64,000 nucleotides of DNA from Alphaproteobacteria bacterium (GCA_017501665.1 JAFVWM010000038.1:69252-133251), one strand, 5' to 3'. Positions 1 to 48,283 are shown, counted from the stretch's first letter. Numbers and translations: made by a program. The notes: a model not told the origin generated them from the sequence alone.

Positions 1-509
1 GTGGTGTTATGACGGCTGCTTTGCGTACTGCATATTTTTATATCACAGGAAAAGAACTTGGTCAGCTTAATTTTGAGGTGATTGAAGGATTGGAAGCGGT
101 TAAAGTTGCCGAAGTAGATATCAATGGTGCCAAAGTAAGAATCGCTGTTGTAAACGGTGTGGGTAATGTTGAGGAAGTTATGGAAAACATTAAAACCGCT
201 CAAGAAGCCGGCGAGGAGCTTCCTTATCATTTTATCGAAGTTATGGCTTGCCCCGGTGGTTGTATCTCAGGTGGCGGTCAGCCAAAAGTGATGATGCAAT
301 GCATGGAAAAACCGTGGGGTATTACCGACGAAATAAGAAAACTTCGTTCAAAAGGTTTGAATGTAGAAGATGAGCAAGCAAAGAATCGCTTATCTCATCA
401 CAACGAATCAATTAAGAAGTTGTATGACGAATTTCTTGGTGAAGCAGGCGGTCACAAGTCGCACGAGTTGTTACATACTAAGTATCGTCAGCGTAACGTT
501 TACAAATAA
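1..509 (+). CDS. hydA: [FeFe]-hydrogenase catalytic subunit, C-terminal part (5' end lies outside the window): the end of the H-cluster domain followed by a C-terminal small-subunit-like domain.
   Basis: The translation contains 'HFIEVMACPGGCISGGGQP', the diagnostic L3/H-cluster cysteine motif of Fe-only hydrogenases. The preceding 'TAALRTAY...VDINGAKVRIAVVNGVGN' matches the CpI-type C-terminus. The tail 'SHHNESIKKLYDEFLGEAGGHKSHELLHTKY' resembles the Fe-hydrogenase small-subunit domain. The reading frame is open from base 3 with no start codon in the window. Confidence 0.85.
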   Translation, partial: GVMTAALRTAYFYITGKELGQLNFEVIEGLEAVKVAEVDINGAKVRIAVVNGVGNVEEVMENIKTAQEAGEELPYHFIEVMACPGGCISGGGQPKVMMQCMEKPWGITDEIRKLRSKGLNVEDEQAKNRLSHHNESIKKLYDEFLGEAGGHKSHELLHTKYRQRNVYK

Positions 510-546: not shown

Positions 547-607
547 AAAGGCTGAAAATTCACGTAGCTATTTGTACGGCTCAAAATTTTCAGCCTTCTT
601 TTTTTGC
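547..607 (+). terminator. Rho-independent terminator downstream of hydA.
   Basis: Inverted repeat 'aaaggctgaaaatt' ... 'aaaattttcagcctt' followed by the run 'cttttttttg'. Confidence 0.6.
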
Positions 608-760: not shown

Positions 761-774
761 CTTTGCTTACGCTT

Positions 775-1086
775 CGTTTAGGGCATGACAATATTGATTA
801 AAACAAGGAAGATCCCTAGAATTTTTTGTTGCACAAAAAATAGGGATGACGTTTTAAATTTAAAATGTCATCGCCCAGCAAAGTCATTCCTCGCTCGGCG
901 CTTCAGCGTCCGTGCGTCTAGGAATCTCATCTTTGCGTCAGCGCTAATATAATAAAAACAAGGAAGATCCCTTGACCTCACTGCGTTCGGAGGGATGACA
1001 TTTCAGGTTAAAGAAGATCCCTTGACCTCACTGCGTTCGGAGGGATGACGTTATATATTCGTTTAGGGCATGATAATATTGATTTA
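775..1086. repeat. Cluster of GC-rich palindromic elements resembling Rickettsia palindromic elements (RPEs), with flanking direct repeats.
   Basis: Three hairpin units share the stem 'gatccct...agggatgac(g)': 810-850, then a ~51-bp tandem pair at 959-1000 and 1010-1051 ('aagatcccttgacctcactgcgttcggagggatgac'). The palindrome 'gatgacgttttaaatttaaaatgtcatc' lies at about 845-872. The flanking direct repeat 'cgtttagggcatga(c/t)aatattgatt' occurs at 775-800 and 1059-1086. These are GC-rich islands in AT-rich DNA. Confidence 0.6.
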
Positions 1087-1236
1087 TCTCGTTTGTCAGC
1101 TTGTTCAAGTGAAGACGCCAGAGATACAAAAACACCTATAAAATCTATTGCCAAATTTAAAAAAACATCATATAATAAAGTATAATTTGCAAATTTTTAC
1201 GATTTGCGAAACTTTTGTTATTGAGGAATGTGTCAG

Positions 1237-4200
1237 ATGAAGAGAATTATTGCTTTGATTGTACTTATCTGTTGCTGTTGTGTATATTCGGCATATTCTC
1301 TTGTGCAACCTCTTTCTTTGACACGAACCACCGGCTCGTCTTCGACAACTTCGTTGCCAATGTATGCTCCACCGCCTAGTGATACGGAGCAAACGTGTTA
1401 TTGTTCTTCGGATACAACTGATGGAACTAGTGATATTAACGGTGGCTGTTTTTTTTGTTTAAATTATGATGGTTATGAAGCCACTCTATTAACAGATTCG
1501 CATCCACCAGCTTTTACTAATGGTTATTATTGTTGGCAATCCGGAAAAATTAATTCGGAATGTGAAAATAATTATGTAGATGAACCACTTTGTGACCATG
1601 AACATAAGTTTTATGCTGAAATAGCTGGACATTACGGATATAAGACTCTTCAAGATGTAAAAGCAACAAACTTAAAGTGCTGTTATTATATGCATGAGGG
1701 AGATAATAGCTATGGAGATATAAATGCGATAAGCGTTGATGCTAATGGAATTACTATCAACGAAGGTTATTCTCCATGGCTTTATTTTTGTGAGGCTGAT
1801 CCGACACAATGTGAGTGGAAGATAAAGAATCCTAATAATCAATCGTTGCAGCTATATAATGATAACGCTATTAAAAGCTATTTGAATAAGATAAAAGATT
1901 TTGAAGGTGTTTTTCCAACGGAAGGTGAAGATATACTTTGTCGAATATCAGCACTTAATGGAGATGAAGAAACGATTATTGATGATGTTAGAATTTTTTA
2001 TGCTAATTCTAGTCTTCAGAGCTGTGATGATGATTATTCTCCATATGAAACAAGTGAATATAGTAGTCCTTGTAAAATAAGTATAGTTAGTTACAATAAT
2101 GATGAGGCGAGAGGTGAAATAGAGATTACCGAAGAGTATCTTTTAGGTTACCAAAAAGAACCTGAAGAGCCCGCTATTCCTGATTGTTCTGATATTTTTT
2201 CTGATGAGATTATAGATCTTTTGAGATCAGACGGAAAATGTAAACTAGATCATGAGACAAAGTCTTGTGTTCTTAACGGTGTAACCAAATACTACTGTAG
2301 TGCTATTGCAGCTGGAACTTTTTGTAAAGGTGATTTTAGCCTATATTACGACGATACTTACACAGAAACCTGTCCTATAAATAATTCACAAGTCGTAGGA
2401 TATAAAAAACCTGAGGAAGAAGCGGTTCCTTCTGAAGATTGTTCTGATATTTTTTCTGATGATATTATAGATCTTTTGAGATCAGACGGAAAATGTGCTC
2501 AAAATCATGAAACAAAGTCTTGTGTTTATAACAATGAAACCAAATACTACTGTAGTGCTTCTGTAGATGTAGCTAATTGTGCAGGTGATTTTAGCCTATA
2601 TTACTACGATACTTACACAGAAACCTGTTCTATAAATAATTCACAAGTCGTAGGATATAAAAAACCTGAGGTTACCTGTGATGAAGTTTTTGAAGACATA
2701 GATAGTATTATCGGCATATTACCTGAAAAATCAACCATAGAGTGTGGCTCTTACGTGTCAGGATCGTGTACATATGGTAGTAAGGCATACTCTTTCTGCT
2801 ATGGTGATGTCTTAAATGCCTGCCCTGATAACTCAGACGAATACAGTAGGGAATATACCTCATCATACACAGAACCATGTTCTTACACACTAGGCGAACC
2901 GGATGGTCATTATAACGGGATGGACATCAATATTTTAGGGTTTACTCAAAAAGATACAGATAGTTGTGAAAATAAAATACATGACTATTTTGAAAATGAT
3001 AATTGGTTATACGTAAGAGAATCAGATCTTAATGAAGAAGATCGTGAAATTAAAGATAATTTTATTACAGACACATGTATAGATAATGGCACAGAGACAT
3101 ATATATATCGTATATGTACTTTTGAAGAGGTCTGTAACAGGGAAGACGTTAACGGAAGCACCTCTTCCTGTAATTATTACGAAGGTTTACACACTTGCAA
3201 ATGTCCGAATGGTTGGATGACCATCGAAGAATATAGATCCCTTAATGGTTATACGGAGGATACAATAATCACGGGGATAGGTAATGCGTGCAAAGCTGAA
3301 AAAGTTGAAAAATTTAGCGAGTTTGAGGTGGTTTTAGGAACAGATGAGTATCCATCATGTCAAGACATCATAGAACATCAAAATGCCTCAGGTGATCCGA
3401 CTAAACCTAAAGACGGCTATTATGATTATTGCTCAGATGAAATTGATAGAATTGCTTGCCATAATAGTGATACAATGGCTGCTCTTTGCCGTTATTGCGG
3501 AGCAGAGAATAATGTTGAAAACGGATACAATTTTGAAAAATCCTTTAAAATAGACAGTGAAACAGTCCCTTGTCTACAAGGTTGTCATGAGGACTATGCT
3601 TGCAGTTATACGAAGACAGATGGCACCACAATAACCTATTGTTCACAATGTGATTGCAGCGGATATGCCTCCAAGTTGGAACTTTGTTCTGTCGGTTTTG
3701 AGGGAGAAGAAAACAATACCGAGATATTGGCTTCTCCATGTTATACGTCAGGAAAAGTAGATGAAAATGAAAGTTGTAAACTGAGCCCGATTGATAATAC
3801 TTTACCGACTACGTACAAAAAGATATTGTGTCCTGATGATTATGTGACACTGGAAGATTGGCTTGAAACATCTCAGACAATAATTGATGAAAACGAATTT
3901 TTAGGAAACAACTTGAATATTAGCAACGAAAATCAATGGATAAATTATTTTGTACCTCAGACTGATGAAGGATCAGTATGTGATTATGCTGTCGAAGTTG
4001 TTGAATCAGGTTCAAGCGGAACAGATGTAGATTCCGACATTGAAGAGACAAATGATCCCGAAAACCGTTTGTATGAAATAATATCACTTGAAACAAAATA
4101 TAAAGGATTTAACTTAAATTGCCAAGCCTTGGTTGAGACATTACCAAATCTTGAGTTTATCAATCAGGCCTATTTGCACAACTACAATGATTATACAACC

Positions 4201-5214
4201 TGTTGGGATATTGAAGGCAATCAGGAAAAATACCTTGCCACATGTGAGGAGGATTATCTTCTTCCCGAAGAAGGTTATGAAGTGATCGGCAACGAAGATG
4301 TTTGTAAATTTAACGGAAAAGATTATTATAAATATGGCGGATCTTGTCCGGTGATATTCAGCGGTAAAGAAGCTGTTGTTGCTGAGAGCATGAGTGATGA
4401 TGCTATAAGAAATTTGTATGGTAGCGTAAAAATAAGTTATTGCAATGATAAGGGTGTCAAAAAGAAAGTTACTTTATGTGACCCGAATATCTATAACCAA
4501 ATATGCGAATATCCATACACATATGCTGACGGTCTGCCACAAAAAGAATGGTGTTTTAGAAATATTCGAGGAAAAGCCGTTAATCCATACGATACAGCAA
4601 ATAATGTAAAATATTATACAAATACAGGATTGCCCATACAATGTGAGTATGTTCCAGAATCGTGTGATTCTATATTGCAACAAGATAGTAGCGCCAATAA
4701 TGTTTTCATAGAAGACAGCCCTAATGACTGTATAAAAAAATACGGAACGGCAGTCCAAACAAAATTGTGTAGCGGAGATAATAATATTCCGAAATACGCG
4801 TGCTATTATCCGAAAGATACCTATAAATATACTACCCAAAACTGTCCTATCGGAAGAGATTTGTCTCGCCCATACATCTTAATCAACGGTGTAAAACATT
4901 GGGACAGATGTGATTGTCCTCCGGCCTATAAATATCACGTAAATAACTGTCGTGTGTATGATCTTGGCGGTGATACTTGCGAACAACAAATCGACCCGCA
5001 GTTCATTGATGCGGCCAATGATCCGACATTGCCGACATCAGGAAGCATAAAGCTCTATACCAAGTGCAACGATCCTCAGATAAATCAACCGAACGGTTGT
5101 AAAACCCCTTTGGGTACTTGGGCAAAATGCTACTATTGTTGCCCCAAAGGTACCAGAGCTACCGGAAATCTGTCTATTGACAGTTGCGGAGCAAAAATTT
5201 ACGAGTGTAAATAA
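1237..5214 (+). CDS. Very large (~1320 aa) cysteine-rich, acidic, Tyr/Asn/Asp-rich secreted protein with an internal tandem ~82-aa repeat; function unknown.
   Basis: The ORF is long and uninterrupted. 'gagga' sits 8 nt upstream of the ATG at 1237 (an in-frame ATG also exists at 1228). The N-terminus 'MKRIIALIVLICCCCVYSAYS' looks like a signal peptide. Cysteines number in the dozens in patterns such as CxC and CxxC. No recognisable enzymatic motif was found. Confidence 0.7.
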   Translation: MKRIIALIVLICCCCVYSAYSLVQPLSLTRTTGSSSTTSLPMYAPPPSDTEQTCYCSSDTTDGTSDINGGCFFCLNYDGYEATLLTDSHPPAFTNGYYCWQSGKINSECENNYVDEPLCDHEHKFYAEIAGHYGYKTLQDVKATNLKCCYYMHEGDNSYGDINAISVDANGITINEGYSPWLYFCEADPTQCEWKIKNPNNQSLQLYNDNAIKSYLNKIKDFEGVFPTEGEDILCRISALNGDEETIIDDVRIFYANSSLQSCDDDYSPYETSEYSSPCKISIVSYNNDEARGEIEITEEYLLGYQKEPEEPAIPDCSDIFSDEIIDLLRSDGKCKLDHETKSCVLNGVTKYYCSAIAAGTFCKGDFSLYYDDTYTETCPINNSQVVGYKKPEEEAVPSEDCSDIFSDDIIDLLRSDGKCAQNHETKSCVYNNETKYYCSASVDVANCAGDFSLYYYDTYTETCSINNSQVVGYKKPEVTCDEVFEDIDSIIGILPEKSTIECGSYVSGSCTYGSKAYSFCYGDVLNACPDNSDEYSREYTSSYTEPCSYTLGEPDGHYNGMDINILGFTQKDTDSCENKIHDYFENDNWLYVRESDLNEEDREIKDNFITDTCIDNGTETYIYRICTFEEVCNREDVNGSTSSCNYYEGLHTCKCPNGWMTIEEYRSLNGYTEDTIITGIGNACKAEKVEKFSEFEVVLGTDEYPSCQDIIEHQNASGDPTKPKDGYYDYCSDEIDRIACHNSDTMAALCRYCGAENNVENGYNFEKSFKIDSETVPCLQGCHEDYACSYTKTDGTTITYCSQCDCSGYASKLELCSVGFEGEENNTEILASPCYTSGKVDENESCKLSPIDNTLPTTYKKILCPDDYVTLEDWLETSQTIIDENEFLGNNLNISNENQWINYFVPQTDEGSVCDYAVEVVESGSSGTDVDSDIEETNDPENRLYEIISLETKYKGFNLNCQALVETLPNLEFINQAYLHNYNDYTTCWDIEGNQEKYLATCEEDYLLPEEGYEVIGNEDVCKFNGKDYYKYGGSCPVIFSGKEAVVAESMSDDAIRNLYGSVKISYCNDKGVKKKVTLCDPNIYNQICEYPYTYADGLPQKEWCFRNIRGKAVNPYDTANNVKYYTNTGLPIQCEYVPESCDSILQQDSSANNVFIEDSPNDCIKKYGTAVQTKLCSGDNNIPKYACYYPKDTYKYTTQNCPIGRDLSRPYILINGVKHWDRCDCPPAYKYHVNNCRVYDLGGDTCEQQIDPQFIDAANDPTLPTSGSIKLYTKCNDPQINQPNGCKTPLGTWAKCYYCCPKGTRATGNLSIDSCGAKIYECK
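2175..2670 (+). repeat. Two tandem ~246-nt direct repeats inside the Cys-rich gene, encoding duplicated ~82-aa Cys-containing modules.
   Basis: 'tgattgttctgatattttttctgatga(g/t)attatagatcttttgagatcagacggaaaatgt...' recurs at about 2175 and 2424. The protein segments 'PDCSDIFSDEIIDLLRSDGKC...TETCPINNSQVVGYKKPE' and 'EDCSDIFSDDIIDLLRSDGKC...TETCSINNSQVVGYKKPE' are about 85% identical. Confidence 0.85.
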
Positions 5215-5295: not shown

Positions 5296-6564
5296 TTGAA
5301 GAACTTAAAAAAATGGCTAAAATCCATGAAAATTTATGCCGACAAACGTATGCTCGTTATGTTGTTGTTGGGGTTTGTGTCCGGATTGCCTTTTTTGCTT
5401 GTTTCATCAACATTGTCTCTTTGGCTTAAAGATGTCGGCGTTTCATTAACCGCAATCGGTTTGTTTTCACTTGTAAAAGCTCCTTACAGTTTTAAATGGC
5501 TGATTTCGCCGATTATTGACCAATATTCTTTGCCGTTTTTTTCAAAATTGGGACGTCGCAGAAGTTGGGCGGTTTTTTTACAGATATTGTTGATCATATC
5601 TCTGATATATACTGCCTTTACCAATCCGACTTTATCACCGGTGATGTTTGTTGTTTTTGTTTTTATGGTCGCGCTGTTTTCATCTGCCCAAGACATTGTT
5701 CTTGATGCTTATCGTATCGAAAACTTCAATTCTAAAGAACAAGGCGCCGGTGTTGCCGTATTTGTCTTGGGTTACCGCATAGGTCTGTTGTTTTCCGGAG
5801 CAGGAGCTTTGTTTTTGGCCTCGATAATGTCGTGGTCTTATGTATATTTGATTATGGCCGGCGGTGTTTTAATCGGTCTTGTTACTATATTGCTGTCCAA
5901 AGAGCCTAAAAACAACCGCGCTTCAAAACCATATACTCTTCGCGCTACTATTGTTAATGCCGTAATAAAGCCTTTTTCAAATTTTATGAAACGTGATAAA
6001 TGGCTTCTTATTTTGCTGTTTATATTTTTCTATCGCATGAGCGATGCTTATGTCGCGCCAATGGCTTATCCGTTTTTTGATGACATTGGTTTTACCAAAG
6101 TTCAAATTGCCTCAATTATTAAAATATATGGTGTAATTGCTACCATTTTTGGCACTCTTGTCGGCGGTGTCGTGGTTAATCGTATAGGATTGGCTAAAGC
6201 ATTGTTTGTTTGCGGAATATTGCAAGGACTATCCAACCTTGTTTATGTCGGACAAGTTTATGCCGGTAATAACGCTCAAATATTAATGATAAATATTTTT
6301 ATCGAAAATGTTTCGGGCGGAATGGGTACAGCTGCTTTTGTGGCATATTTATCTGCACTTTGTAACAAAAAATATACCGCAACCCAATATGCTTTGTTAT
6401 CTTCATTTATGGGGGCGGCTCGCGACTTGTTTTCTGCGTCGTCCGGTTTTGTGGCGCATATATTATCGTGGCAAAATTTCTTTATTGCCACAACTTTAAT
6501 GTCACTCCCCGGAATGATAATTTTATATTATTTGATAAAAGTAAAAGCTATTCGTAATCGCTAA
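5296..6564 (+). CDS. ampG: AmpG-family muropeptide / MFS permease.
   Basis: TTG start at 5296 lies 7 nt after 'aaggag'. The 422-aa protein is polytopic. The N-terminus 'MLVMLLLGFVSGLPFLLVSSTLSLWLKDVGVSLTAIG' is typical of AmpG. Confidence 0.75.
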   Translation: MKNLKKWLKSMKIYADKRMLVMLLLGFVSGLPFLLVSSTLSLWLKDVGVSLTAIGLFSLVKAPYSFKWLISPIIDQYSLPFFSKLGRRRSWAVFLQILLIISLIYTAFTNPTLSPVMFVVFVFMVALFSSAQDIVLDAYRIENFNSKEQGAGVAVFVLGYRIGLLFSGAGALFLASIMSWSYVYLIMAGGVLIGLVTILLSKEPKNNRASKPYTLRATIVNAVIKPFSNFMKRDKWLLILLFIFFYRMSDAYVAPMAYPFFDDIGFTKVQIASIIKIYGVIATIFGTLVGGVVVNRIGLAKALFVCGILQGLSNLVYVGQVYAGNNAQILMINIFIENVSGGMGTAAFVAYLSALCNKKYTATQYALLSSFMGAARDLFSASSGFVAHILSWQNFFIATTLMSLPGMIILYYLIKVKAIRNR

Positions 6565-7322
6565 ACCTTATATGGTAATTTTGAATAGATAAAATCACTT
6601 ACTTTGTTGGGCAAAATTGAACCTAACCACGTGGCTAACCTCATCTGCCAAGGAAAAGCTATCAATCCGACATTTTTTTCTATGCGCTTGGCAATAATTT
6701 CTGCCGCTTTGTCTGCTTCCATAAAATAGGGCATCGGACAGGTGTTCTTATCGGTAATGCGCGAACGAATAAACCCCGGACAAATTGTCGAAACTCTTAT
6801 ACCCAGAGGTGCTAAAGACAATCTTAATCCCTCTCCCCAAGCTTTAACACAAGCTTTTGTCGCCGAATATGACGGACAAGTCGGCATCCCATGATATCCG
6901 GCAATCGACGAAGTAATTGCAATATGTTTCATTTGCTCTGCCGGAGCTTTCTTAAACAAATCTATCACCGGTAAAACCGTATTTATAACTCCCAAAACAT
7001 TAACAAAAAACGTTCTTCGTACATTATCGGTTGTTTCCTCCAAAGTTGCCACGCCGGCATTGGCAAATACCAAATTAAGAGGCATTTTTTTATTGGCTTC
7101 GTTTATCCATGCTTCAACATCTTTCTTCATTCTTACATCAACGATTCTTGCATCAACCTCAACACCGAACTTACGGCATTCTTCAGCCGTTTTATCCAAT
7201 CTTTCCTTGTTTCTTCCGCACAATGATAACAATTTCACACCTGACTTGGCATAATGAATTGCTAAAGCCTCACCAATTCCCGATGAAGCTCCGGTAATTA
7301 AAACATGATTAAATTTATTCAT
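6561..7322 (-). CDS. Short-chain dehydrogenase/reductase (SDR) family oxidoreductase.
   Basis: 'VLITGASSGIGEALA' is the TGxxxGxG Rossmann motif. The catalytic 'YSATKACVKAW' matches YxxxK. Confidence 0.8.
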   Translation of the reverse strand: MNKFNHVLITGASSGIGEALAIHYAKSGVKLLSLCGRNKERLDKTAEECRKFGVEVDARIVDVRMKKDVEAWINEANKKMPLNLVFANAGVATLEETTDNVRRTFFVNVLGVINTVLPVIDLFKKAPAEQMKHIAITSSIAGYHGMPTCPSYSATKACVKAWGEGLRLSLAPLGIRVSTICPGFIRSRITDKNTCPMPYFMEADKAAEIIAKRIEKNVGLIAFPWQMRLATWLGSILPNKVSDFIYSKLPYKV

Positions 7323-9644: not shown

Positions 9645-10565
9645 ATGCACAAAATTTTTAATTCGGTAAGCGATATGATCGGCAATACTCCTATGCTTAA
9701 AATAAATAACCTTACCCAAAGATTGGGCTTAAAAGCAAATGTCTTTGCCAAATGTGAGTTTTATAATCCGTTTTTTTCCATTAAGGATCGGGCAGGACTA
9801 AAGATTATTGAAAATGCTCTTAACCGCCAAAAAGTCGATGAGGAAACAATTTTTGTAGAGGCAACCAGCGGAAATATCGGCGTTGCCATTGCCGGTATAT
9901 GTGCTTCAAAAAATCTCAAATCACTTTTGATAATGCCGGAAAACACCTCAAAAGAAAAAATAAAAATGATAAAACATTTCGGTGCCGACGTAATTTTGAC
10001 ACCTAAAGAAGACGGCATGGACGGAGCTATTGCCAAAGCCGAAATGTTGTCCAAAAAATCTGATAAAGTTATATTATTAAAACAATTTGTTAACCAAGGT
10101 TGTGTCGACGCTCACTTATTTGGTACCGCAACCGAAATCTTAAATGATATGAGCGGAAATATTGATGTAATAATTGCTTCTGTCGGCACTTCGGCAACAT
10201 TAACGGGTGTTGCTCAGGCATTAAAAACATCTAACCCCGAATTATACACCGTGGCCGTAGAACCCAAAGAAAGTAACGTATTGAATAATGGCACGAAGGG
10301 AAACCACAAAATACATGGTATTGGTGCCGGTTTTATTCCTCCTTTGTATAAAAAAGAATTGGTCGATGAAGTCTATGATGTCTTAAGTGAAGATGCGTGG
10401 GATATGGCCAAAGCCGTTGCTCAAACAGAAGGTTTGCCTATCGGCATATCTTCAGGTGCTGTTTTTGTGGCTTGCGTTGATATAGCCTCTCGCGAAAAGT
10501 TCAAAGATAAAAATATTGTTATTATTTTACCTGATGCAATTATCAATTACTTATCCGAAATCTAA
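9645..10565 (+). CDS. cysK: Cysteine synthase / O-acetylserine sulfhydrylase (PLP-dependent).
   Basis: 'IGNTPMLKI', 'KDRAGLKII' (PLP-binding Lys context) and 'SSGA' motifs. Confidence 0.85.
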   Translation: MHKIFNSVSDMIGNTPMLKINNLTQRLGLKANVFAKCEFYNPFFSIKDRAGLKIIENALNRQKVDEETIFVEATSGNIGVAIAGICASKNLKSLLIMPENTSKEKIKMIKHFGADVILTPKEDGMDGAIAKAEMLSKKSDKVILLKQFVNQGCVDAHLFGTATEILNDMSGNIDVIIASVGTSATLTGVAQALKTSNPELYTVAVEPKESNVLNNGTKGNHKIHGIGAGFIPPLYKKELVDEVYDVLSEDAWDMAKAVAQTEGLPIGISSGAVFVACVDIASREKFKDKNIVIILPDAIINYLSEI

Positions 10566-12433: not shown

Positions 12434-13951
12434 ATGCAAACACAAGAAAATATGCCAAGACCTGAAATAATTTTGGTTGCAGACACCGTAGCCAGAGAAA
12501 AGAATATTGATAAAGAAGATGTTTTTGAAGCAATGGAAGTTGCCATTCAAAAATCAGCTCGTTCAAAATATGGTGCAGAACACGATATCAGAGCGCATAT
12601 TGACAGAAAGACAGGGGCAATTTCACTTGCACGTTATCGTGAAGTTATTGCAGATGATGCAACTAAAGAAAATGAAACAACTCAACTTTTCTTAGATGAA
12701 GCTCAAGCTTATGACGAAAATATAAAGGTAGGCGAATTTATTGTTGATGCTCTTCCGCCGATTGATTTCGGACGTATTGCCGCACAAACAGCAAAACAAG
12801 TTATTGTTCAAAAGGTTCGTGATGCCGAACGCAACAAACAATTTGAAGAATACAGAGAAAAAATAGGTACAATTATTAACGGAACAGTTAAACGTGTTGA
12901 ATTTAACAGTATTTCTGTTGATATCGGCAAAACGGAAGCAGTATTACGTCGTGAAGAAATAATACCTAAAGAAAAATTTAAGGTCGGTGACAGAATCAGA
13001 GCTTATGTTCTCGATGTAAGAAGAGAAAGCAAGGGGCCACAGATCTTCTTATCACGTACATGTCCCGAATTTTTAACTAAATTATTTACGTCAGAAGTTC
13101 CTGAAATTTATGACGGTATTATTCAAATTATGGGCGTTGCTCGTGATCCCGGTTCAAAAGCCAAGATATCTGTTAAAACAGACGATGTTACCGTAGATGC
13201 CGTAGGTTCTTGTGTGGGTTTAAGAGGAATTCGCGTTCAAGCAGTTACTAATGAATTGCAAGGTGAAAGAATTGACATTGTCCCTTATTCTGAAGACAAA
13301 GCTCAATACATGGTTTCAGCACTTTCTCCGGCCGAAGTTACTAAAGTTGTAATCGATGAAGAAAATAATCGTATTGAGGCAGTGGTTCCTCAAGAACAAT
13401 TCTCATTGGCTATCGGTCGTCGCGGTCAAAATGTCAGATTGGCTTCTTTATTGCTCGGTTGTGATATTGATGTTTTGACCGAAGAGCAAGAACAAGAGCG
13501 TCGTTCTAACGAAAATAAAGTTCGTTCACAGAGATTTATGGAAGCTTTGGACGTTGATGAAATGATTGCTCATTTGTTAATTGCCGAAGGCTTCTCCAAT
13601 GTTGATGAAGTGGCTATGGTTGATTTGAGCGAATTGGCCGAAATAGAAGGTTTTGATGATGATGTTGCTCAAGAGTTGCAAAAAAGAGCGAAAGAATATG
13701 TCGAAAACCGTAACAAAGAATTTGAAAAGAAGAGCAAATCGTTGGGCATTGATGAAAAGCTTCAGGCTATTGAAGGCTTAGACAAAGATATGCTTTTGGC
13801 TCTTGCCAATGCAAATATCCGCAATGTTGACGATTTAGGTGACTTGGCAACCGATGAGCTTATAGAAATATTAGGTGAAAACACTTTGTCTGTTAAAGAA
13901 GCAGAAAAAGTTATCATGGCTGCTCGTGCTCACTGGTTTGAAGAAGAGTAA
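12434..13951 (+). CDS. nusA: Transcription termination/antitermination factor NusA.
   Basis: S1 and KH domains ('IDIGKTEAVL', 'GSCVGLRGIRVQAVTNEL') and a C-terminal acidic repeat region. Confidence 0.95.
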   Translation: MQTQENMPRPEIILVADTVAREKNIDKEDVFEAMEVAIQKSARSKYGAEHDIRAHIDRKTGAISLARYREVIADDATKENETTQLFLDEAQAYDENIKVGEFIVDALPPIDFGRIAAQTAKQVIVQKVRDAERNKQFEEYREKIGTIINGTVKRVEFNSISVDIGKTEAVLRREEIIPKEKFKVGDRIRAYVLDVRRESKGPQIFLSRTCPEFLTKLFTSEVPEIYDGIIQIMGVARDPGSKAKISVKTDDVTVDAVGSCVGLRGIRVQAVTNELQGERIDIVPYSEDKAQYMVSALSPAEVTKVVIDEENNRIEAVVPQEQFSLAIGRRGQNVRLASLLLGCDIDVLTEEQEQERRSNENKVRSQRFMEALDVDEMIAHLLIAEGFSNVDEVAMVDLSELAEIEGFDDDVAQELQKRAKEYVENRNKEFEKKSKSLGIDEKLQAIEGLDKDMLLALANANIRNVDDLGDLATDELIEILGENTLSVKEAEKVIMAARAHWFEEE

Positions 13952-31836: not shown

Positions 31837-33675
31837 ATGAAAAAATTATTATTATTCATTGTTGCTATAACGATAGTTATGGCAACAGCTTGTCGCCACC
31901 CACTGAATGATCCATTTGGCGAGTGGACAAAATTGGAAGGCAACGAGGAGTTGCCAACAATAGTTGATACCGTATCAATTGTTGATACAGTGTCAATTGT
32001 TGATACAGTGTCAATTATTGATACTATCTTTATCGACAATGTTATAGTCATAGACAGTATCATATACATCACTGTTACAGACACTGTTACAGTGATTGAT
32101 ACAATTAACAATGAAATAATCATTGTTGATACGGTATTTGTCGAGACAGTCTTCGACTGTTTCGGAATCGATAGAAACGGCTATATTGTTGCCACGTCAA
32201 CCGACGGTGACGATTATACGATTTCGTATAATGTTACGGTCGACGTGACCGGTGACGTGTTCTTTGATCAGCCGAGCGAAGAGCCGTTTACGTTGGATAA
32301 ACAATCATCATTATTTGAGAATGATCACGCTTACTTCAAAGTAAGTAAGGGCGATCAAGAGTTTAATCTTCCTGTATATGTCAGGGGAGCGAACTCAGTT
32401 ATCATCAATGATGAATTGGTTAAGCCGTGTAATCCATTTTCTGTATCGGCAAATGTAAATCCAAAACCGGATACTGAAATTGACGGAGAATTGTACGAAA
32501 CTGCTGAGGTTACGTATGTATTCCGAAACGGAGAAAATGTGCCTATCGCCACGGCGTTACAGCGCGTTTATGCGCCAAAACCAGAGGGCGAAGAACCGGA
32601 AGATCCGGAAGAACCGGAAGAGCCGGAGAATGAAAGAATAGTTACAATTGAACACAGCACACAAGGAGGTGTGTTGGTTGTAACAGGCGTTATCGACAAC
32701 ACTATTTATGGTGACACCATTGCAGAGGTAATGATACCATTATCTTTGGCATTGGAATGCCAAAATAGAGTTGTTGTTGAAGGAAATTCTTTCAACTTCA
32801 GCTTGAACGGAAGTTGTTTCTCTGTCAACAAACAAGTTTTGAACTCACTCCAAAGTGAGAACAATGGAATGGTTGTTGAGTATGAGAATGTCGAAGAAAC
32901 ATTCCATCAAGATTACACTGCTTGCGGAAACATTGTGACTGCCGAGCAAAAAGTTTTTTATAATAACAACTTTAAAGTGAATTTTGGTGGAGAAACAAGA
33001 GATATAGTGATACCTCTTACAGTTTCTTCCGGAGCACCAACACTCGGTTCAACCGAAGTGATAGAAAATGAGGCACATAAATTAGCAACAGTGCCTTATA
33101 CTGCAACAATGGCAGAAATGACGGCATCAGCTTCGCAAGAAGTTGAGATGATTATTAGAGCGATAAGCTTTGATGGTCAAAGAGTCGTTGAAGCATATAG
33201 AACACTGTCAACAAACAGCCATACAAGTTGGTTCGTTTATGACTGCGTTTTAGCAGTAACGAATGATGGTGCCGACCATTACTATCACTATCGTGAGATA
33301 GTTAATGGTGTTGAAGGAGCATGGATTTCCGAGAAATTAACCGATGAAAATTATGCCTTTATTACCAATAAGGCATATTTCAACGGTCACGGGAAATATG
33401 GTTTAGCCATATACTATCATAAAAATTATAGTGGACCTTTCGTTGGTGTTGTAACCGACGACATCGGAGGTTCCTATAATGAGGTCGTCTATCACGCCTT
33501 CGGCAAGGAGCAGAAAACCGTTACGGCATCTCGTTTTGCAGTATTCGGTGAGTTAAATACGGCAATCGCAGGTTCATCGGTTGAGGAAAATGGCCTCATC
33601 AAGATGACCTGTCAGGAAGTAACATTAAATGAGACTCAGGTACTTTCGAATGCCGGAACAGTTTATTTTTATTAA
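31837..33675 (+). CDS. Putative lipoprotein with N-terminal (IVDTVS)n and Ile/Val/Asp/Thr-rich repeats and a (PEEPEE) acidic linker.
   Basis: Lipobox 'IVMATAC'; 612-aa ORF; no recognised homology. Confidence 0.55.
   Translation: MKKLLLFIVAITIVMATACRHPLNDPFGEWTKLEGNEELPTIVDTVSIVDTVSIVDTVSIIDTIFIDNVIVIDSIIYITVTDTVTVIDTINNEIIIVDTVFVETVFDCFGIDRNGYIVATSTDGDDYTISYNVTVDVTGDVFFDQPSEEPFTLDKQSSLFENDHAYFKVSKGDQEFNLPVYVRGANSVIINDELVKPCNPFSVSANVNPKPDTEIDGELYETAEVTYVFRNGENVPIATALQRVYAPKPEGEEPEDPEEPEEPENERIVTIEHSTQGGVLVVTGVIDNTIYGDTIAEVMIPLSLALECQNRVVVEGNSFNFSLNGSCFSVNKQVLNSLQSENNGMVVEYENVEETFHQDYTACGNIVTAEQKVFYNNNFKVNFGGETRDIVIPLTVSSGAPTLGSTEVIENEAHKLATVPYTATMAEMTASASQEVEMIIRAISFDGQRVVEAYRTLSTNSHTSWFVYDCVLAVTNDGADHYYHYREIVNGVEGAWISEKLTDENYAFITNKAYFNGHGKYGLAIYYHKNYSGPFVGVVTDDIGGSYNEVVYHAFGKEQKTVTASRFAVFGELNTAIAGSSVEENGLIKMTCQEVTLNETQVLSNAGTVYFY
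31969..32040 (+). repeat. 18-nt tandem repeat (3.5 units) inside the lipoprotein gene.
   Basis: 'gttgata c(c/a)gt(a/g)tcaatt' x3, then 'attgatactatc'. Confidence 0.8.
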
Positions 33676-34945: not shown

Positions 34946-37900
34946 TTACCATGCATCGTCGTAAGGCAAGCTTGGGTCGTTGACTTGCTTGGCCCAGCCT
35001 TCACCTTTACCGGCGTTTTCGAGGGTAGGGTCAACAGGTTCTCTATTCAAAGTATTAGGATCGCGAAAAGTGTTAGAATTCAGCTGGTTATAATTTAGGA
35101 CAGGGCTTTCAATGTTATTGGAATCCCATCTGTTACCTGCGGTGGGCGCAAAAGCGCAATAAGTGGTAACGATAGAAGCCATTTCGTGGGCGTATACAGG
35201 AAAGATGTTCCAGTGTAATGCATCAGGGTCGGCACCATAGAGTCCTGTATCATCGAGAAGATCTGTATAATCGTTCGGTTTATATAAGAAACCCATTAAA
35301 ATATGCCAGCCATCTGTGCTACCATCGGAGCTATCGTGAGGTAAAACAGAAGAATTTAGCCATGTATTTGTTTGAAAAGTTATTGGTGTTGCCGAAGTTT
35401 TATGTTTGTGCGGGGTTGTCGTGGCTAATTCCTCTTTAATACTGAAAAAAGCTTCTTTGGGGTTGTGATGTTTTTTGAAATAATAGGAGAATCTTTCATC
35501 AGCGGTAGGTGGTGTATCGCTTTCATCCATTTGAGATTTTAAGTCTTTGATAATTATGTTGTATTTTTTCTCGTCCAAAATATCCTCAAGATCGTTATCT
35601 TGATCGTCGTCGATGTCATGTAAATAGTAAACTTCGGACATACGCCATCTGATAGGGTTATTAGTGACAACTGCTAAATAATGTTCAGGGCATTGTGGTT
35701 TAGGGACAAATCCCAACCAAGGCGATGCCACGCAATCGGCATTTTGGCAAGAATATATTTCGCAATCAGGATTTGGTGTTCCTGTATTATCTATTGGTAC
35801 GCAAGATGTGTTACCAGTGACGTTATTTGCTTTAATGACGCCGGCCTTTACTGCGCCTTTTTCTATCGGTATTACATCCCAGATGAGAGCATCGCTATTT
35901 AGTCCGGATACCCACTCGTTCTGTATATTGAAACCTTCATTTTCAGAATAACCTGCATGATAAGTGTTATCCCCGACGTAGATGCCTTTTATGATATAAT
36001 CGGATAAAATATCACTAAGACGAGCACCGCCTCGTGAGGCCAGTTTTATATCATTCATAATAGAGGTATAGGCAGGGTTTACCTGATAGTAATCGTAAGG
36101 ATGCGCTACATCGTGTCCATCATATGTAGCTCCATCGAAGTGCGGATGATCATAATAAGGAATATCACTGACTAAACGTCGAGCGCGGATAAAGCCGGCT
36201 TTAGTACCGTCATTAGCTCCTGATGTTCCGTAGTCGGAAGGTGGGGCAAGTTCAATGTAGCCGTTGCGGGAAATGATAACTTTTTGATTACTTTGTGGGG
36301 TTAAAGGATTAGTGATCGGATTGTCTCTGTTTCCACCACTGTCTGTTAAATTTTCACCTATGGCAAGACCGCCATTGTCAAGGAAAAAATCTGCTGCACT
36401 AACCCTAAATTTATCAGTATTAAGCTCGAAGTTATCGCTATCAACTGTTAATTTGTTCGAAGCGTCCAAAAATAGCGATGCAGTGGTATCAGGACTATCA
36501 GTACTGTTTTTGCTAAAACCAAAAGTTTCAGGGCTAAGAAAGAGCTTAGTATACATATCATTGTTGTTGCCAGATTCAATGTAAGTATCTCCTGAATTAA
36601 TTGCCAATCTATCTTTTCCATTATGTTTTAACTGAGCGACCGGGGCTCCTGATTTTTTTATAATAAACTGGGTATCATCTGTTTTCATGCTAATAGAATT
36701 GTTTGTAGCATCAGAGATAAATTCTCCTGCATTAGATCCTAATCGGGCAAAGGTTTTGTTGTCAGGATCATTAGACAATTCCATAAAAACATTGCCAGTT
36801 GGATTTTTCAATAAAGTTTGATTTTCGGTCATAGAAAGTTGGGATCCTGCTGAATTTGCTATGTTAACGTTAAATTCGCTACCATTGAAAGAAGCTTTAT
36901 CACTGTTAACATTAAATGTGTTGCTGTCAACCTTCATTACTGATGGGCTATCGGGGGTGTTACCGACGGTTAGTTGGGTTTCGGCATGTAAGTTGTTGGA
37001 AATTAAAGTTCCCTCTATGGTTAGATCACCACCAACAGTTGCATCGTTAGTGACGGCTAAGGATGTAAGATCGGTTTCACCGGCAGACAGTTCGTTTAAT
37101 TTTGTGGCGCCGGTAACATCTAAGGTTGAGTCGAGAGTTGTGGCGCCGATTACCTTTAAGGTTGAGTCGAGAGTTGTTGCTCCGTCAACATCTAAGGTTG
37201 ATTTGAGAGTTGTTGCTCCGTCAACATCTAAGATTCCTTTAACAGATGCATCGGCCAAGGTTGTTAATCCGGTTACATTTAAGGTTGATCCGAGAGTTGT
37301 GGCGCCGCTTACCTTTAAGGCTGAGCTGAGAGTTGTATCGCCGCTTACCCCTAAGGTTGAGCTAATCTTGGCTGCACCCTTAACAACCAAATTATCACTA
37401 TCATCACTACCTATTGTAAGTTCTCCGCCTTGACCGAATAATGCATTGATGTCTTGGATGTCATGGCTTCCCATTATCAAATTGGTTTCCATAGTATTCT
37501 TTACTGGATCATCATCATTAACACGATAGAGTAATTTTGAAGTATTGGCGGTGGCTGATTCGGCAATCGCCTCATTAGAAATAGACATCAATGAACCGGT
37601 CTTCAAATCAGTCGAAGGGACCTCAAACCATTCTTGCGGATTAGCACGCCATGCACCTTGCGCACCCACAAACCTATCTTCTTTTATCGTACCGCCGTTA
37701 ATGCCTATCATTGAAGCAATTTTGGAAGCACGATTGAATGTTATCGGATTGAGTGACGGGGCTAAAACAGCTGTTGTGTATACACTGCGCGTTTTACCGG
37801 TCATATCTGTATCATCTTCACGCTTTATCGAAAATTTTAAATTATTGGCATCAAAATATTTTGACTGCGAAAGATTGAAACCCGCCGGCAAATAAGCATT

Positions 37901-38188
37901 TACCCCTTTCACAATATCATTGGAAGAGTCTGTTGCAGTTACGATTTCATACTCTCCATTATCAACCAAGGTCGGAAGATCGTTATAGTTGTTGCGTACA
38001 TAATTATCCAAAGCCTCATTTAGTGTACGCATTTGAGTTGCAATGTTAATATCTTGTAACTCGGTGGTACGCTCTGCGGCTTTTTTGTACATAACAGGTG
38101 TAACCATCGTAATAAGCCCGAGCAAAGCCAAAGCTTCAACCATTAAGCTACCTCTTTGCAAAACTTTATACATATCTTGTTTTTTCAT
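34946..38188 (-). CDS. Giant (1080 aa) protein with a type IV prepilin-like N-terminus, a beta-helix-like repeat region and a C-terminal Cys-containing globular domain; possible pilin-fused adhesin.
   Basis: N-terminal 'MKKQDMYKVLQRG|SLMVEALALLGLITMVTPV' has a short basic leader ending in Gly, Glu at +5 and a 20-aa hydrophobic helix. This is a class III (prepilin peptidase) signal. Repeats of the 'GATTLDSTLDVTG' type occur at about aa 280-370. Confidence 0.6.
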   Translation of the reverse strand: MKKQDMYKVLQRGSLMVEALALLGLITMVTPVMYKKAAERTTELQDINIATQMRTLNEALDNYVRNNYNDLPTLVDNGEYEIVTATDSSNDIVKGVNAYLPAGFNLSQSKYFDANNLKFSIKREDDTDMTGKTRSVYTTAVLAPSLNPITFNRASKIASMIGINGGTIKEDRFVGAQGAWRANPQEWFEVPSTDLKTGSLMSISNEAIAESATANTSKLLYRVNDDDPVKNTMETNLIMGSHDIQDINALFGQGGELTIGSDDSDNLVVKGAAKISSTLGVSGDTTLSSALKVSGATTLGSTLNVTGLTTLADASVKGILDVDGATTLKSTLDVDGATTLDSTLKVIGATTLDSTLDVTGATKLNELSAGETDLTSLAVTNDATVGGDLTIEGTLISNNLHAETQLTVGNTPDSPSVMKVDSNTFNVNSDKASFNGSEFNVNIANSAGSQLSMTENQTLLKNPTGNVFMELSNDPDNKTFARLGSNAGEFISDATNNSISMKTDDTQFIIKKSGAPVAQLKHNGKDRLAINSGDTYIESGNNNDMYTKLFLSPETFGFSKNSTDSPDTTASLFLDASNKLTVDSDNFELNTDKFRVSAADFFLDNGGLAIGENLTDSGGNRDNPITNPLTPQSNQKVIISRNGYIELAPPSDYGTSGANDGTKAGFIRARRLVSDIPYYDHPHFDGATYDGHDVAHPYDYYQVNPAYTSIMNDIKLASRGGARLSDILSDYIIKGIYVGDNTYHAGYSENEGFNIQNEWVSGLNSDALIWDVIPIEKGAVKAGVIKANNVTGNTSCVPIDNTGTPNPDCEIYSCQNADCVASPWLGFVPKPQCPEHYLAVVTNNPIRWRMSEVYYLHDIDDDQDNDLEDILDEKKYNIIIKDLKSQMDESDTPPTADERFSYYFKKHHNPKEAFFSIKEELATTTPHKHKTSATPITFQTNTWLNSSVLPHDSSDGSTDGWHILMGFLYKPNDYTDLLDDTGLYGADPDALHWNIFPVYAHEMASIVTTYCAFAPTAGNRWDSNNIESPVLNYNQLNSNTFRDPNTLNREPVDPTLENAGKGEGWAKQVNDPSLPYDDAW

Positions 38189-38200: not shown

Positions 38201-38896
38201 TTACAGCTTGCTGACATATGCAATACATGAACCGTTGTAATTTGTATTACAATTAGCCGATATTTCATTCCACATATCATCAGGAATTGTATACACGGGT
38301 GTTCCCTGATAATTTATAATTTCTTTTTCTTCACCGTTTTCTCTTATATAACCGACCCATTCATCATACCCGAAGTGATTTCTGAAAGCCTTTATTACAT
38401 CATCGTTCGGCGTAACCACAGTTTTTTCGGTACCTCCAGCAGTAGCAATTTCTTGTGTGGCCAGCCACCTTATATGCAAATCGCCATATGTGATCAAAAG
38501 TCTTGTTTTTGGGTTATCAGTAACATCATGACACTCATCTGCATGAGATTCGTCCTTGTTGTAACAAAAAATTTGTGATGTATACTCCTCACTACGCACA
38601 AAACCGTTGGGAATATAATCATCCAATTCTTCAGGGTCTATAGAACCCGGAGTAAATCCAATTCGTTTATCTGGATCGCACTCTGTAACAGTGTCGCCTT
38701 CAGCAGTACCGGCGCAATAATACGGCCATTTCAATTTTCTGGCATATTTTAATGCAACTCGATGATTTATTACCATTTTAACCATATGTGCCGACGCCAC
38801 CGGAACATTAACTTTTTCCGGAGTGTCGGACCTCATCGGCAATGAATATCCCGCCAAAATAGCCAAAAACGTAGATAATACCAGCCACATATACAT
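38201..38896 (-). CDS. Hypothetical Cys-containing exported protein, co-directional with and immediately upstream of the giant prepilin-like gene.
   Basis: N-terminal hydrophobic segment 'MYMWLVLSTFLAILAGYSLPM'; 13-nt gap to the downstream gene. Confidence 0.45.
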   Translation of the reverse strand: MYMWLVLSTFLAILAGYSLPMRSDTPEKVNVPVASAHMVKMVINHRVALKYARKLKWPYYCAGTAEGDTVTECDPDKRIGFTPGSIDPEELDDYIPNGFVRSEEYTSQIFCYNKDESHADECHDVTDNPKTRLLITYGDLHIRWLATQEIATAGGTEKTVVTPNDDVIKAFRNHFGYDEWVGYIRENGEEKEIINYQGTPVYTIPDDMWNEISANCNTNYNGSCIAYVSKL

Positions 38897-39095: not shown

Positions 39096-39611
39096 TTGTT
39101 TTCTATGATCAATGACGATTTGGATGATATTGAAGAGATTATAGCTCCACCATATGCAAAGCGCAAAAAACTAATGCTTTTGTTGCTTCCTGCCGTTGTG
39201 GTAATCGGTGTTTCGGTGGGTTTGTATTTTGCGTTTAATAAGAAAAATGATACACGTGGAGTCGGATTTAATGTTATTCAATATAGCAAAGATTCTAAAG
39301 ATGATGCTACGGTTTTTTATGATTTGCCCGAAATAAAGGTCGATGTTAAGGGTAAGGATAGAAGGCATGCATTAAGATTGAAGCTTAATATTGAACTTTC
39401 GAGCGTTGATGATATTGGTGTTGTTCAGGCAATGAGCGCTCGTTTGATTAATGCGGTGTTAAGCCATGTGGTTGAATTGTATGTCGAAGAAGTTGAGGGT
39501 TCGACAGGGTTGTATTGGCTTAAGGAGGAGTTGCTTTATAGGTTTAATTTGGTGGCTTCGCCCATAAAGATTAAGAATCTTAATTTTAGTGTGTTTGAGT
39601 TGGAAAAATAA
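39096..39611 (+). CDS. fliL: Flagellar basal-body-associated protein FliL.
   Basis: Single TM helix, then 'KVDVKGKDRRHALRLKLNIELSS...LKEELLYRFN', the typical FliL architecture; directly upstream of fliM. Confidence 0.7.
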   Translation: MFSMINDDLDDIEEIIAPPYAKRKKLMLLLLPAVVVIGVSVGLYFAFNKKNDTRGVGFNVIQYSKDSKDDATVFYDLPEIKVDVKGKDRRHALRLKLNIELSSVDDIGVVQAMSARLINAVLSHVVELYVEEVEGSTGLYWLKEELLYRFNLVASPIKIKNLNFSVFELEK

Positions 39612-39629
39612 ATAAAAGGACAATTTTAA

Positions 39630-40631
39630 GTGGCTGAAAATAACGATGATATATTAGAAAATGAGGCTCAAGATTTTAGGGCGTTGAATCAGGAAGAGAT
39701 TGACGCTTTGTTGGGTTATGGATATTCTGATGAATATGAGACACATCAAAAAAACGGTCTTCAGGCTATTTTGCGAAGCAATATGGTGTCGTATGAACGA
39801 TTGCCAATGTTGGAGATTGTTTTTGATCGCCTTATTCGACTTTTGGCAACATCATTACGTAATTATGCACAAGATAACGTTGAGGTTGCCTTAGATTCTA
39901 TAGAGTCTATGCGTTTCGGTGAATATATCGATTCACTTACTTTGCCTACCTTGATAAGCGTTTTTAAGGCAGAGGAGTGGGATAATTATGGCTTGATAAC
40001 CATGGATAGTGCAATGATATATTCTATGGTTGATGTTTTGCTCGGAGGTCGTCATGGTACGGCGGCTATGCGTATTGAAGGACGTCCGTATACTCCGATC
40101 GAGCTTAATATTATTAAAGAAATTGTCCATATTATTTTGAATGATCTGTCGTCGGCTTTTGATCCGGTTACATCTATCGGATTTGCTTTTGACAGATTGG
40201 AAACGAATCCTCGTTTTGCTACAATTACCAGAATGTCGAATGCCGTAATAGTCGCACGTCTTCGTGTTGATATGGAGGATCGTGGCGGTAAAATAGATCT
40301 TATAATCCCGTATGCTTCTTTAGAGCCTGTTCGTGATTTGTTGGTTCAAATGTTTATGGGAGAAAGATTTGGTCGAGATGTAATTTGGGAAAACCATTTG
40401 ATGTCACAGCTGTGGGATACCAGTGTTGAAGTTAAAGCTGTTATTAAGGAAACTAAAGTTTTTCTTAGTGAGGTGTCGTCTTGGAAAAAAGGATCGTTCT
40501 TTCCGTTGGATATTTCGCCTTGCGATGATATATCTGTTTTGTGTGGTGATGTGCCTTTGTTTAACGGCGTTATGGGTAGAAAAGAGGATAATGTTGTGGT
40601 GAAAATTAACGGAAGGGCAGATAAAAAATGA
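39630..40631 (+). CDS. fliM: Flagellar motor switch protein FliM.
   Basis: GTG start after 'aaagga'. N-terminal 'LNQEEIDALLG' is the CheY-P-binding-like motif. A middle CheC-like domain and a C-terminal SpoA-like domain are present. Confidence 0.8.
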   Translation: MAENNDDILENEAQDFRALNQEEIDALLGYGYSDEYETHQKNGLQAILRSNMVSYERLPMLEIVFDRLIRLLATSLRNYAQDNVEVALDSIESMRFGEYIDSLTLPTLISVFKAEEWDNYGLITMDSAMIYSMVDVLLGGRHGTAAMRIEGRPYTPIELNIIKEIVHIILNDLSSAFDPVTSIGFAFDRLETNPRFATITRMSNAVIVARLRVDMEDRGGKIDLIIPYASLEPVRDLLVQMFMGERFGRDVIWENHLMSQLWDTSVEVKAVIKETKVFLSEVSSWKKGSFFPLDISPCDDISVLCGDVPLFNGVMGRKEDNVVVKINGRADKK

Positions 40632-48049: not shown

Positions 48050-48136
48050 GCGCTTGTGGCGGAACAGGTAGACGCTGCAGACTTAAAATCTGTTGGCCGC
48101 AAGGCCGTGCCGGTTCGATTCCGGCCTAGCGCACCA
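48050..48136 (+). tRNA. tRNA-Leu (anticodon UAA), class II with long variable arm and encoded CCA.
   Basis: D-arm 'ggcggaacaggtagacgc', anticodon loop 'cuUAAaa', long variable arm 'gttggccgcaaggccgtgcc', T-arm 'ccggttcgattccgg', 3' 'gcacca'. There is one mismatch in the acceptor stem. Confidence 0.85.
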
Positions 48137-48283
48137 TTTAAAAAAGTCCTCTTTATGAGGGCTTTTTTAATTGGTATGATATATCAGAGTATCGAAGCGG
48201 CACGGTGCCGGTTTGAACCGCAGTTCGCAGGCGAACGGAGTGCGCCGGTCAAATTTTTGAGCGAACAAGGTCGGCGAAGCCAT

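Follow-up and report, generated by a model that had tools for sequence, protein, structure and literature searches.

The gene described here lies in a 64,000-nucleotide (nt) stretch of DNA (the window) from the metagenome-assembled genome (MAG) of an Alphaproteobacteria bacterium (GCA_017501665.1, JAFVWM010000038.1:69252-133251), between the 3′ end of an [FeFe] hydrogenase gene and a gene for an AmpG-family transporter, and encodes a very large cysteine-rich protein (Table 1). Its open reading frame (ORF) runs without interruption on the + strand from 1228 or 1237 to 5214; since a GAGGA Shine-Dalgarno sequence (1223-1227) stands 9 nt 5′ of the ATG at 1237 and MKRIIAL is the N-terminal start of every homologue, we take the product to be 1325 residues long, not 1320 as given by an earlier, sequence-only reading of this DNA. 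The protein is an exact match to the GenBank record listed in the table, entitled ‘MAG: hypothetical protein [Alphaproteobacteria bacterium]’. Counted from ATG 1237 it holds 86 cysteines (6.5%), of which four fall in the signal peptide and the mature protein keeps 82; the ORF from ATG 1228 (1328 residues, 87 cysteines) has a pI of 4.28 and a composition of D 8.4, E 8.3, Y 8.1, S 7.9, N 7.3, T 7.1 and C 6.6%. This is a real outlier: in the other 45 ORFs of the window, Cys makes up 0.97% on average (at most 2.6%) and Tyr 3.6%. The dozens of cysteines and the acidic, D/E/N/Y-rich make-up noticed in the sequence-only reading are thus borne out, and its many CxC and CxxC spacings were overstated, there being 6 CxC, 5 CxxC and 5 CC (three of the CC from the signal peptide) among 86 spacings.

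The signal peptide, likewise noticed earlier, is MKRIIALIVLICCCCVYSAYS (residues 1-23), followed by LVQ. Beyond it we found no second hydrophobic segment; the signal peptide itself lacks a twin-arginine motif, and residues 1-40 contain no lipobox ([LVI][ASTVI][GAS]C), the mark of a bacterial lipoprotein.

Table 1. Features of the cysteine-rich gene and its surroundings, with positions counted from the first letter of the window
Feature	Position	Strand	Evidence and remarks
3′ end of [FeFe] hydrogenase group A6 gene	9..509	+	NCBIfam NF040763, 172 bits on 166-residue fragment; not part of the unit
Intrinsic terminator, hydrogenase operon	548..606	+	13-bp stem and T-run, -18.9 kcal/mol, z = -4.3
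Array of REP/MITE-like palindromic units	773..1084		43-nt unit at 960-1002 and 1010-1052; double hairpin 800-872 (z = -4.8)
Promoter-like site TTGCCA-17-TATAAT (11/12)	1148..1176	+	Within strain-conserved proximal 180 bp
Coding sequence, 1325-residue cysteine-rich protein	1237..5214	+	GenBank MBR2922840.1
Sec-type signal peptide, residues 1-23	1237..1305	+	Sole hydrophobic segment; predicted cleavage between AYS and LVQ; aligns with canonical signal peptides of relatives
Conserved mature N-terminus LVQPLSLT	1306..1329	+	AITPI..T.Y in distant relatives
Hypervariable region, residues 32-780: head (residues ~45-300) and 6-Cys modules	1330..3576	+	Alignment break between same-species alleles
Tandem DNA repeat, period 255 nt (85 residues), 1.9 copies	2182..2671	+	89-90% nt identity
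6-Cys module 1, residues 317-390	2185..2406	+	Module HMM, independent E-value 7.5e-26; AlphaFold pLDDT 88.7
6-Cys module 2, residues 402-475	2440..2661	+	Module HMM
6-Cys module 3, diverged/degenerate, residues 481-570	2677..2946	+	Module HMM
Conserved C-terminal region, residues 781-1325 (~545 residues)	3577..5211	+	36/36 Cys columns invariant in 5 alleles
Module-like copy within conserved C-terminal region, residues 1037-1113	4345..4575	+	Module HMM
Family core domain, residues 1073-1283, contains CPIGRDLSRPYILINGVKHWDRCDCPPAYKYHVNNC	4453..5085	+	Common to P0005, P0007-P0009, P0012, P0013 and the L011 protein
Cys-rich tail, 31 residues, WAxCYYCCPxG…YECK, WAKCYYCCPKGTRATGNLSIDSCGAKIYECK	5116..5211	+	Kept in relatives after acidic spacer of 0-100 residues
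AmpG-family muropeptide MFS transporter	5296..6564	+	TIGR00901, 473 bits; conserved downstream neighbour

The tandem repeat reported in the sequence-only reading exists, although its true period is 255 nt and not ~246 nt. A hidden Markov model (HMM) built from the two tandem copies settled on a module of 80-95 residues with the cysteine pattern C-x17-20-C-x8-C-x9-C-x8-C-x15-C and an end of the form VVG[YF], and the six conserved cysteines claimed for each module are borne out. By this HMM the window protein has three full modules and one partial one, plus one in the conserved C-terminal region; the alleles P0003 and P0004 (numbers with P denote proteins of the family, those with L its loci) have five plus one and seven plus one. 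AlphaFold, given 21 module copies as input, predicts two short helices and two beta-hairpins, with a predicted local distance difference test score (pLDDT) of 88.7 and a predicted template modelling score (pTM) of 0.74. Between modules 1 and 2 of the window protein we count 25 nonsynonymous and 2 synonymous changes (omega 3.4, p = 0.057), and the allele P0016 has one module that combines parts of modules 1 and 2 as a mosaic, a sign of gene conversion. In one assembly (P0017 and P0018, on an 80-kb ENA contig) the gene is in two pieces of 418 and 997 residues; the break falls exactly inside the tandem module repeat and is followed by an out-of-frame duplicate of earlier sequence, the result of misassembly or else of a rearrangement at this repeat.

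Within the conserved C-terminal region, the core and the Cys-rich tail are parted in three relatives by an acidic Gly/Asp/Glu/Ser/Thr spacer of 50-100 residues. In the L011 protein a tail-like element sits internally, and we therefore regard the tail as a small domain and not as an obligatory C-terminal sorting signal, a role that we had considered and dropped. AlphaFold renders residues 960-1325 (366 residues, 10 sequences) as a string of small hairpin/helix beads (pLDDT 76.7, pTM 0.40). No barrel appears in this model, no Pfam hit to a type V autotransporter was obtained and the protein ends in ...IYECK, so that it does not qualify as such an autotransporter.

Four loci (L001, L002, L003 and L005) have flanking genes 95-98% identical in nucleotides to those of the window and therefore probably belong to the same species. 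Between strains the signal peptide and the last 545 residues are conserved, and the N-terminal two-thirds are unalignable or mosaic, the alleles differing in their heads and in the number and order of their modules. The alignment to L002 halts at nt 1328 (residue 31) and restarts at nt 3568 (residue ~778), with flanks 96-97% identical; the alignments of L003 and L001 to the window gene have gaps at other places. Taking the closest allele, L005, as the reference for the proportions of nonsynonymous (pN) and synonymous (pS) differences, we count 160.5 nonsynonymous and 19.5 synonymous differences over residues 32-600, where pN (0.119) exceeds pS (0.058; Fisher p = 0.0007), and 35.3 and 20.7 over residues 601-1325, where pN (0.020) falls below pS (0.048); for comparison, ampG has an omega of 0.05-0.15. 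Five independent assemblies carry intact ORFs of 1272-1462 residues, and more distant lineages carry orthologues, also intact, of 987-2524 residues; in several of these lineages the orthologue is at the same locus, with flanking genes ~80% identical in DNA. The gene is functional, its frame intact and under selection, in agreement with the sequence-only reading, which had seen no frameshift or pseudogene.

The cysteines persist through this variation. In the variable region 65% of the cysteine columns are invariant, against 9% of the other columns, and in the conserved region 100% against 79%. Among relatives at 28-46% identity, 20 of the 26 C-terminal cysteine columns keep cysteine in every sequence that covers them, and the exceptions are mostly paired losses or gaps in the fragment P0012: Cys 1288 and Cys 1317 are lost jointly in P0007, P0008 and P0009, and Cys 1298 and Cys 1301 in P0011 and the L011 protein; Cys 1302 and Cys 1324 form a further pair of this kind. 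The mature cysteine count is even in all 11 of the 11 full-length family members (range 64-208). We infer that the cysteines act as disulfide partners. A kept scaffold with altered loops and swapped cassettes is, as far as sequence can tell, what diversifying selection on an exposed molecule leaves behind.

The window protein founds an undescribed, narrowly distributed family, and we found no description of such a family of Cys-rich giant proteins in the literature. A word-indexed search of 5.8 billion clusters returned four relatives at 59-88% identity, and an exhaustive HMMER search of 1.84 billion representatives returned 10 proteins at E <= 0.001, every one of them belonging to uncultured gut Alphaproteobacteria; translated scans added the L011 relative, of 2524 residues. 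A first scan of genome contigs with two exact peptides found nothing and a second found only the MAG ‘Alphaproteobacteria bacterium SIG43’; in a scan of metagenome contigs, L011 alone was confirmed among the matches listed. Profile searches with two alignments missed even the family itself, and their negatives carry no weight. Without exception the relatives are long acidic proteins with 5-8% Cys, and they share one and the same bacterial type of signal peptide. We define the family by a signal peptide and conserved mature N-terminus, by more than 5% Cys with an even mature count, and, in the C-terminal part, by the core CP[IV][GR]..L....I...G.K....C.C...Y.YH..NC and the tail W...YY.CP.G, all of which the window protein has. 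Two members stand in tandem in the more distant lineages of L006 (3-812 and 822-3785) and L013 (6001-9201 and 9280-13170, the second protein having 1296 residues and 8.2% Cys), evidence of local duplication of the family in some genomes; the window has one copy.

Every locus examined sits among bacterial genes, the named records are Alphaproteobacteria MAGs, and neither the 1.84 billion representatives nor the IMG/VR viral contigs held a eukaryotic or viral relative. We therefore dropped a eukaryotic origin, and with it the eukaryote-like character proposed in the sequence-only reading. Its pointer to host-associated bacteria is supported, these being bacteria of the animal gut; the names of some records, among them TONG22 and XIEF21, hint at metagenomes of the ruminant gastrointestinal tract. 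The FliL/FliM, MurJ, AmpG and [FeFe] hydrogenase genes of the window, together with Lpt genes in the syntenic L001 locus, indicate a motile, probably anaerobic, Gram-negative bacterium; the fliL and fliM genes, at 39096-40631, mark a flagellated gut alphaproteobacterium.

The protein and its module match no family or fold that we searched. Pfam gave nothing at E <= 1 for the window protein, and NCBIfam, PHROGs and PADLOC gave nothing; for six relatives the only Pfam hit above the cut-off was DUF2799 (29 bits, P0008), with no TNFR or chitin-binding family among them. PDB sequence and profile searches returned nothing significant, the module profile reaching only the HAI-1 Kunitz domain at E = 0.18, and Foldseek at E <= 0.001 found no match for the module model in PDB or BFVD and none for the C-terminal model in PDB. 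The EGF/TNFR/chitin-binding-like folds that the sequence-only reading suggested looking for thus find no support: the window protein has no Pfam or NCBIfam match to TNFR or to chitin-binding domains (hevein, CBM14), PROSITE-style EGF_1, EGF_2, Kunitz and Kazal patterns are absent, and the best EGF structures for the module model (Spitz) score E 4.7-6.7 and TMq 0.27-0.29 over 34 columns. Nor does the protein resemble a phage tail fibre or receptor-binding protein, as it has no PHROGs hit, no IMG/VR relative and housekeeping neighbours.

We suggest, with a probability of about one half, that this is an exported, disulfide-stabilised modular protein whose N-terminal two-thirds would be displayed and diversified as an adhesin or antigenic coat and whose C-terminal third would serve attachment or assembly. 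After Sec export the modular protein would be fully disulfide-paired, and behind a short conserved mature N-terminus a hypervariable part of ~750 residues, made up of the head and the 6-Cys modules of 80-95 residues, would face outside, where it might bind a ligand or be the target of host antibodies, phages or competitors. The conserved region of ~545 residues would hold the protein on the cell envelope or assemble it. Strains would diversify the variable part, keeping its cysteine scaffold, by duplicating modules, by gene conversion and by exchanging whole alleles. Of the sequence-only reading's suggestion of a toxin-like effector or an adhesin, the adhesin or surface role fits the hypervariability and pN > pS, and the toxin-like part finds no support.

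Several points weigh against this interpretation. The selection test between modules 1 and 2 is on its own borderline, and mosaic ancestry of recombining alleles can inflate pN > pS. Extracellular disulfides may be less stable in the reducing gut habitat of this organism, which has an [FeFe] hydrogenase gene. Finally, we recognised no outer-membrane anchor, beta-barrel, lipobox or sorting motif, and no secretion-system genes adjoin the gene in any locus, so that it is the variability from which we infer surface exposure.

A bolder proposal, which we make tentatively and by analogy, is that the protein may represent an undescribed bacterial surface class: a disulfide-knotted 6-Cys module fold without PDB or BFVD match would form the hypervariable display scaffold of anaerobic gut Alphaproteobacteria, the bacterial equivalent of the variant surface proteins that eukaryotic parasites build on a cysteine scaffold, and would be exported and anchored by an unrecognised route via its mature N-terminus, C-terminal core and tail. 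The family joins a confidently predicted module without structural match to a signal of strain-level diversification that is among the clearest possible at one locus, which makes it a good candidate for the molecule that chiefly faces hosts, phages or partners in a poorly known group of uncultured gut Alphaproteobacteria. The gene could be useful as a marker for strain typing, and Pfam would gain a new domain family. To our knowledge, Gram-negative bacteria seldom have giant proteins rich in disulfides, and anaerobes of reducing habitats more seldom still; should the disulfides be real, the family poses the question of how these organisms manage the oxidation and export of 41-104 cystine pairs per molecule.

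One of the nearest bacterial parallels leads to another possible role. Chlamydial OmcB, from a Gram-negative organism, has a signal peptide, many cysteines thought to form envelope disulfides, a variable, surface-exposed N-terminal part that acts as an adhesin and a conserved C-terminal part, and the window protein is like it in its signal peptide, its many cysteines and its variable N-terminal and conserved C-terminal parts. It could, with a function like that of OmcB, be a periplasmic or outer-membrane-associated structural protein that stiffens the envelope by disulfide cross-links, perhaps tied to peptidoglycan turnover via AmpG, a role that we consider unlikely. The signal peptide takes the protein only to the periplasm, no outer-membrane export signal was recognised, and the CC motifs of the tail could make intermolecular bonds. 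An AmpG-family gene lies directly downstream in at least eight loci, and in all loci of the clade (AmpG was found downstream in L001, L002, L005-L010 and L012, usually ~80 bp away); in the 81-bp gap of the window we found no + strand terminator, and ampG is possibly co-transcribed with the Cys-rich gene. A buried structural protein, however, would not be expected to show allele replacement and pN > pS over 570 codons within one species, and an even cysteine count in every member speaks for pairing inside the molecule. Synteny extends over the downstream block as a whole (AmpG, SDR, YicC, Gmk, Sel1 and CysK-like), so the adjacency of AmpG may be inherited gene order, and the relatives in L011 and L013 have no adjoining AmpG; for these two reasons a functional link to AmpG is no more than possible. 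The protein also differs from OmcB itself: it has no sequence match to it and no Pfam hit to Chlam_OMP6 or DUF11, is 2-3 times larger, denser in cysteine and strongly acidic, carries another 6-Cys module, and comes from an organism with peptidoglycan genes (AmpG, MurJ).

Less probable again is a released extracellular effector or toxin directed against host cells, protists or competing bacteria. Such a molecule could well be secreted, disulfide-rich, acidic, lineage-restricted and fast-evolving in a gut-associated organism, traits that this protein shows or is predicted to have, but no catalytic or toxin domain emerged from Pfam, NCBIfam or PADLOC and no sequence or fold match from PDB, no immunity-like or secretion-system gene adjoins, and beads-on-a-string repeats are commoner in fibrillar surface proteins. 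A variable N-terminus on a conserved C-terminus is, moreover, the reverse of the polarity of polymorphic toxins. We rejected a polymorphic toxin on this ground, with AmpG as the next gene and no toxin or immunity family found, and the toxin-like label of the sequence-only reading is likewise unsupported.

We regard as very improbable a metal-binding or redox protein tied to the neighbouring [FeFe] hydrogenase. Its cysteine content is high, and it directly follows the hydrogenase gene in the window, L001, L003 and L005, an adjacency noted in the sequence-only reading; L001 and L003 have the complete HydABC-like set. The two genes are set apart, however, by a strong terminator and a separate promoter, and the upstream neighbour varies: it is PNPase in L007 (by Pfam), translated fragments in L009 and L012 resemble PNPase, and in L006 it is a second family member. 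The adjacency is therefore incidental, and we dropped a functional link on these grounds. The protein has no CxxCH, one CxxxCH and only 5 CxxC, which sets it apart from multihaem cytochromes c, and its cysteines are lost in pairs, not in fours. Exported proteins loaded with cofactors are expected to carry a Tat signal, but the signal here is of the Sec type, and hypervariability is not expected of a redox partner. That the ORF is spurious, a decaying pseudogene or a repeat assembly artefact has next to no probability, for although one cluster member is split at the tandem repeat and the annotation is ‘hypothetical protein’ only, the frame is intact in the five assemblies and further orthologues noted above, pN < pS in the C-terminal half, 36 cysteine columns are fully conserved, and the promoter region is conserved too.

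Other repetitive or variable surface proteins resemble the window protein in part. The Hop-family adhesins of H. pylori (BabA/SabA) have a variable N-terminal ectodomain with disulfide-clasped loops, alleles that recombination between strains diversifies, and a conserved C-terminus. They end in a conserved outer-membrane beta-barrel, however, whereas the C-terminal model here shows hairpin beads without a barrel and the last residue is Lys; cysteine density is also far higher here. The Giardia variant-specific surface proteins and the apicomplexan 6-Cys (s48/45) proteins are alike by analogy only, in that a cysteine scaffold is kept while surface residues vary, the organisms are host-associated and 6-Cys modules stand in tandem. 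These are eukaryotic proteins to which no homology was found, and the sole s48/45-type structure among the fold hits has a template modelling score of 0.10; the frequent CxxC, C-terminal transmembrane helix and CRGKA tail of the Giardia proteins are all absent here, and the gene occurs singly or as a tandem pair, without the large switching family of genes. With the Bap, RTX and Ig-like repeat adhesins the protein shares giant size, acidity, modularity and tandem repeats varying in number between strains, but their Ig-like, cadherin-like and RTX repeats are nearly without cysteine and they carry type I secretion or sortase signals, none of which was detected here. The CysRRep repeats of Neocallimastix and prokaryotes, with the spacing Cx6-9Cx5-7Cx8-11Cx7-8CC, flank enzyme domains (bioRxiv 10.64898/2026.06.07.730663). 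They too are cysteine-rich repeats in secreted proteins, and Neocallimastix, a gut fungus, has a broadly similar habitat; their spacing does not occur in the window protein, in which no enzyme domains were found either.

The ~700-bp repeat-rich non-coding region upstream that the sequence-only reading described is real. It spans 510-1236 (727 bp), gave nothing significant by blastx, including no remnant of a lost paralogue when compared with the family, and yielded only sub-threshold noise in Rfam. Its proximal part, 1056-1236, is nearly invariant in L001, L003 and L005. The palindromic units within it, which resemble repetitive extragenic palindromes or miniature inverted-repeat transposable elements (REP/MITE), differ in copy number between same-species loci, and copies 90-95% identical flank the orthologue in L007/L010. 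Those of L007 lie at 7166-7248, 12971-13034, 13060-13108 and 13599-13648, and are this similar although the housekeeping flanks of L007 are only ~81% identical, which suggests that the units are mobile or selectively maintained.

Further along the window, a cysteine synthase gene (CysK/CysM-like, 334 bits; 9645-10565, +) lies in the syntenic block 4.4 kb downstream of the Cys-rich gene, probably by coincidence. Two proteins without family match carry signal peptides, one of 612 residues (31837-33675, +; lipoprotein-like, …MATAC) with VDTVSI repeats and one of 859 residues (41729-44308, +). A protein of 1080 residues (34946-38188, -) without Pfam or NCBIfam match has an N-terminus, …QRG followed by SLMVEALALLGLITMV, that resembles a type IV pilin or pseudopilin signal with Glu at +5; many ‘GATTL.STL.V’ repeats follow, and by its sequence it may be a giant pilin-like protein. 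A 231-residue ORF (38201-38896, -) stands beside it. Past a tRNA-Leu(TAA) at 48050-48136 the GC content falls from ~37% to 27-33% up to the window end (64000), and this stretch, 48050-64000, which holds a Dcm-type cytosine methylase (49858-51153), an ORF with an HNH-like motif (51143-52174) and a HipA-like ORF (58867-60039), is probably a genomic island integrated at the tRNA.

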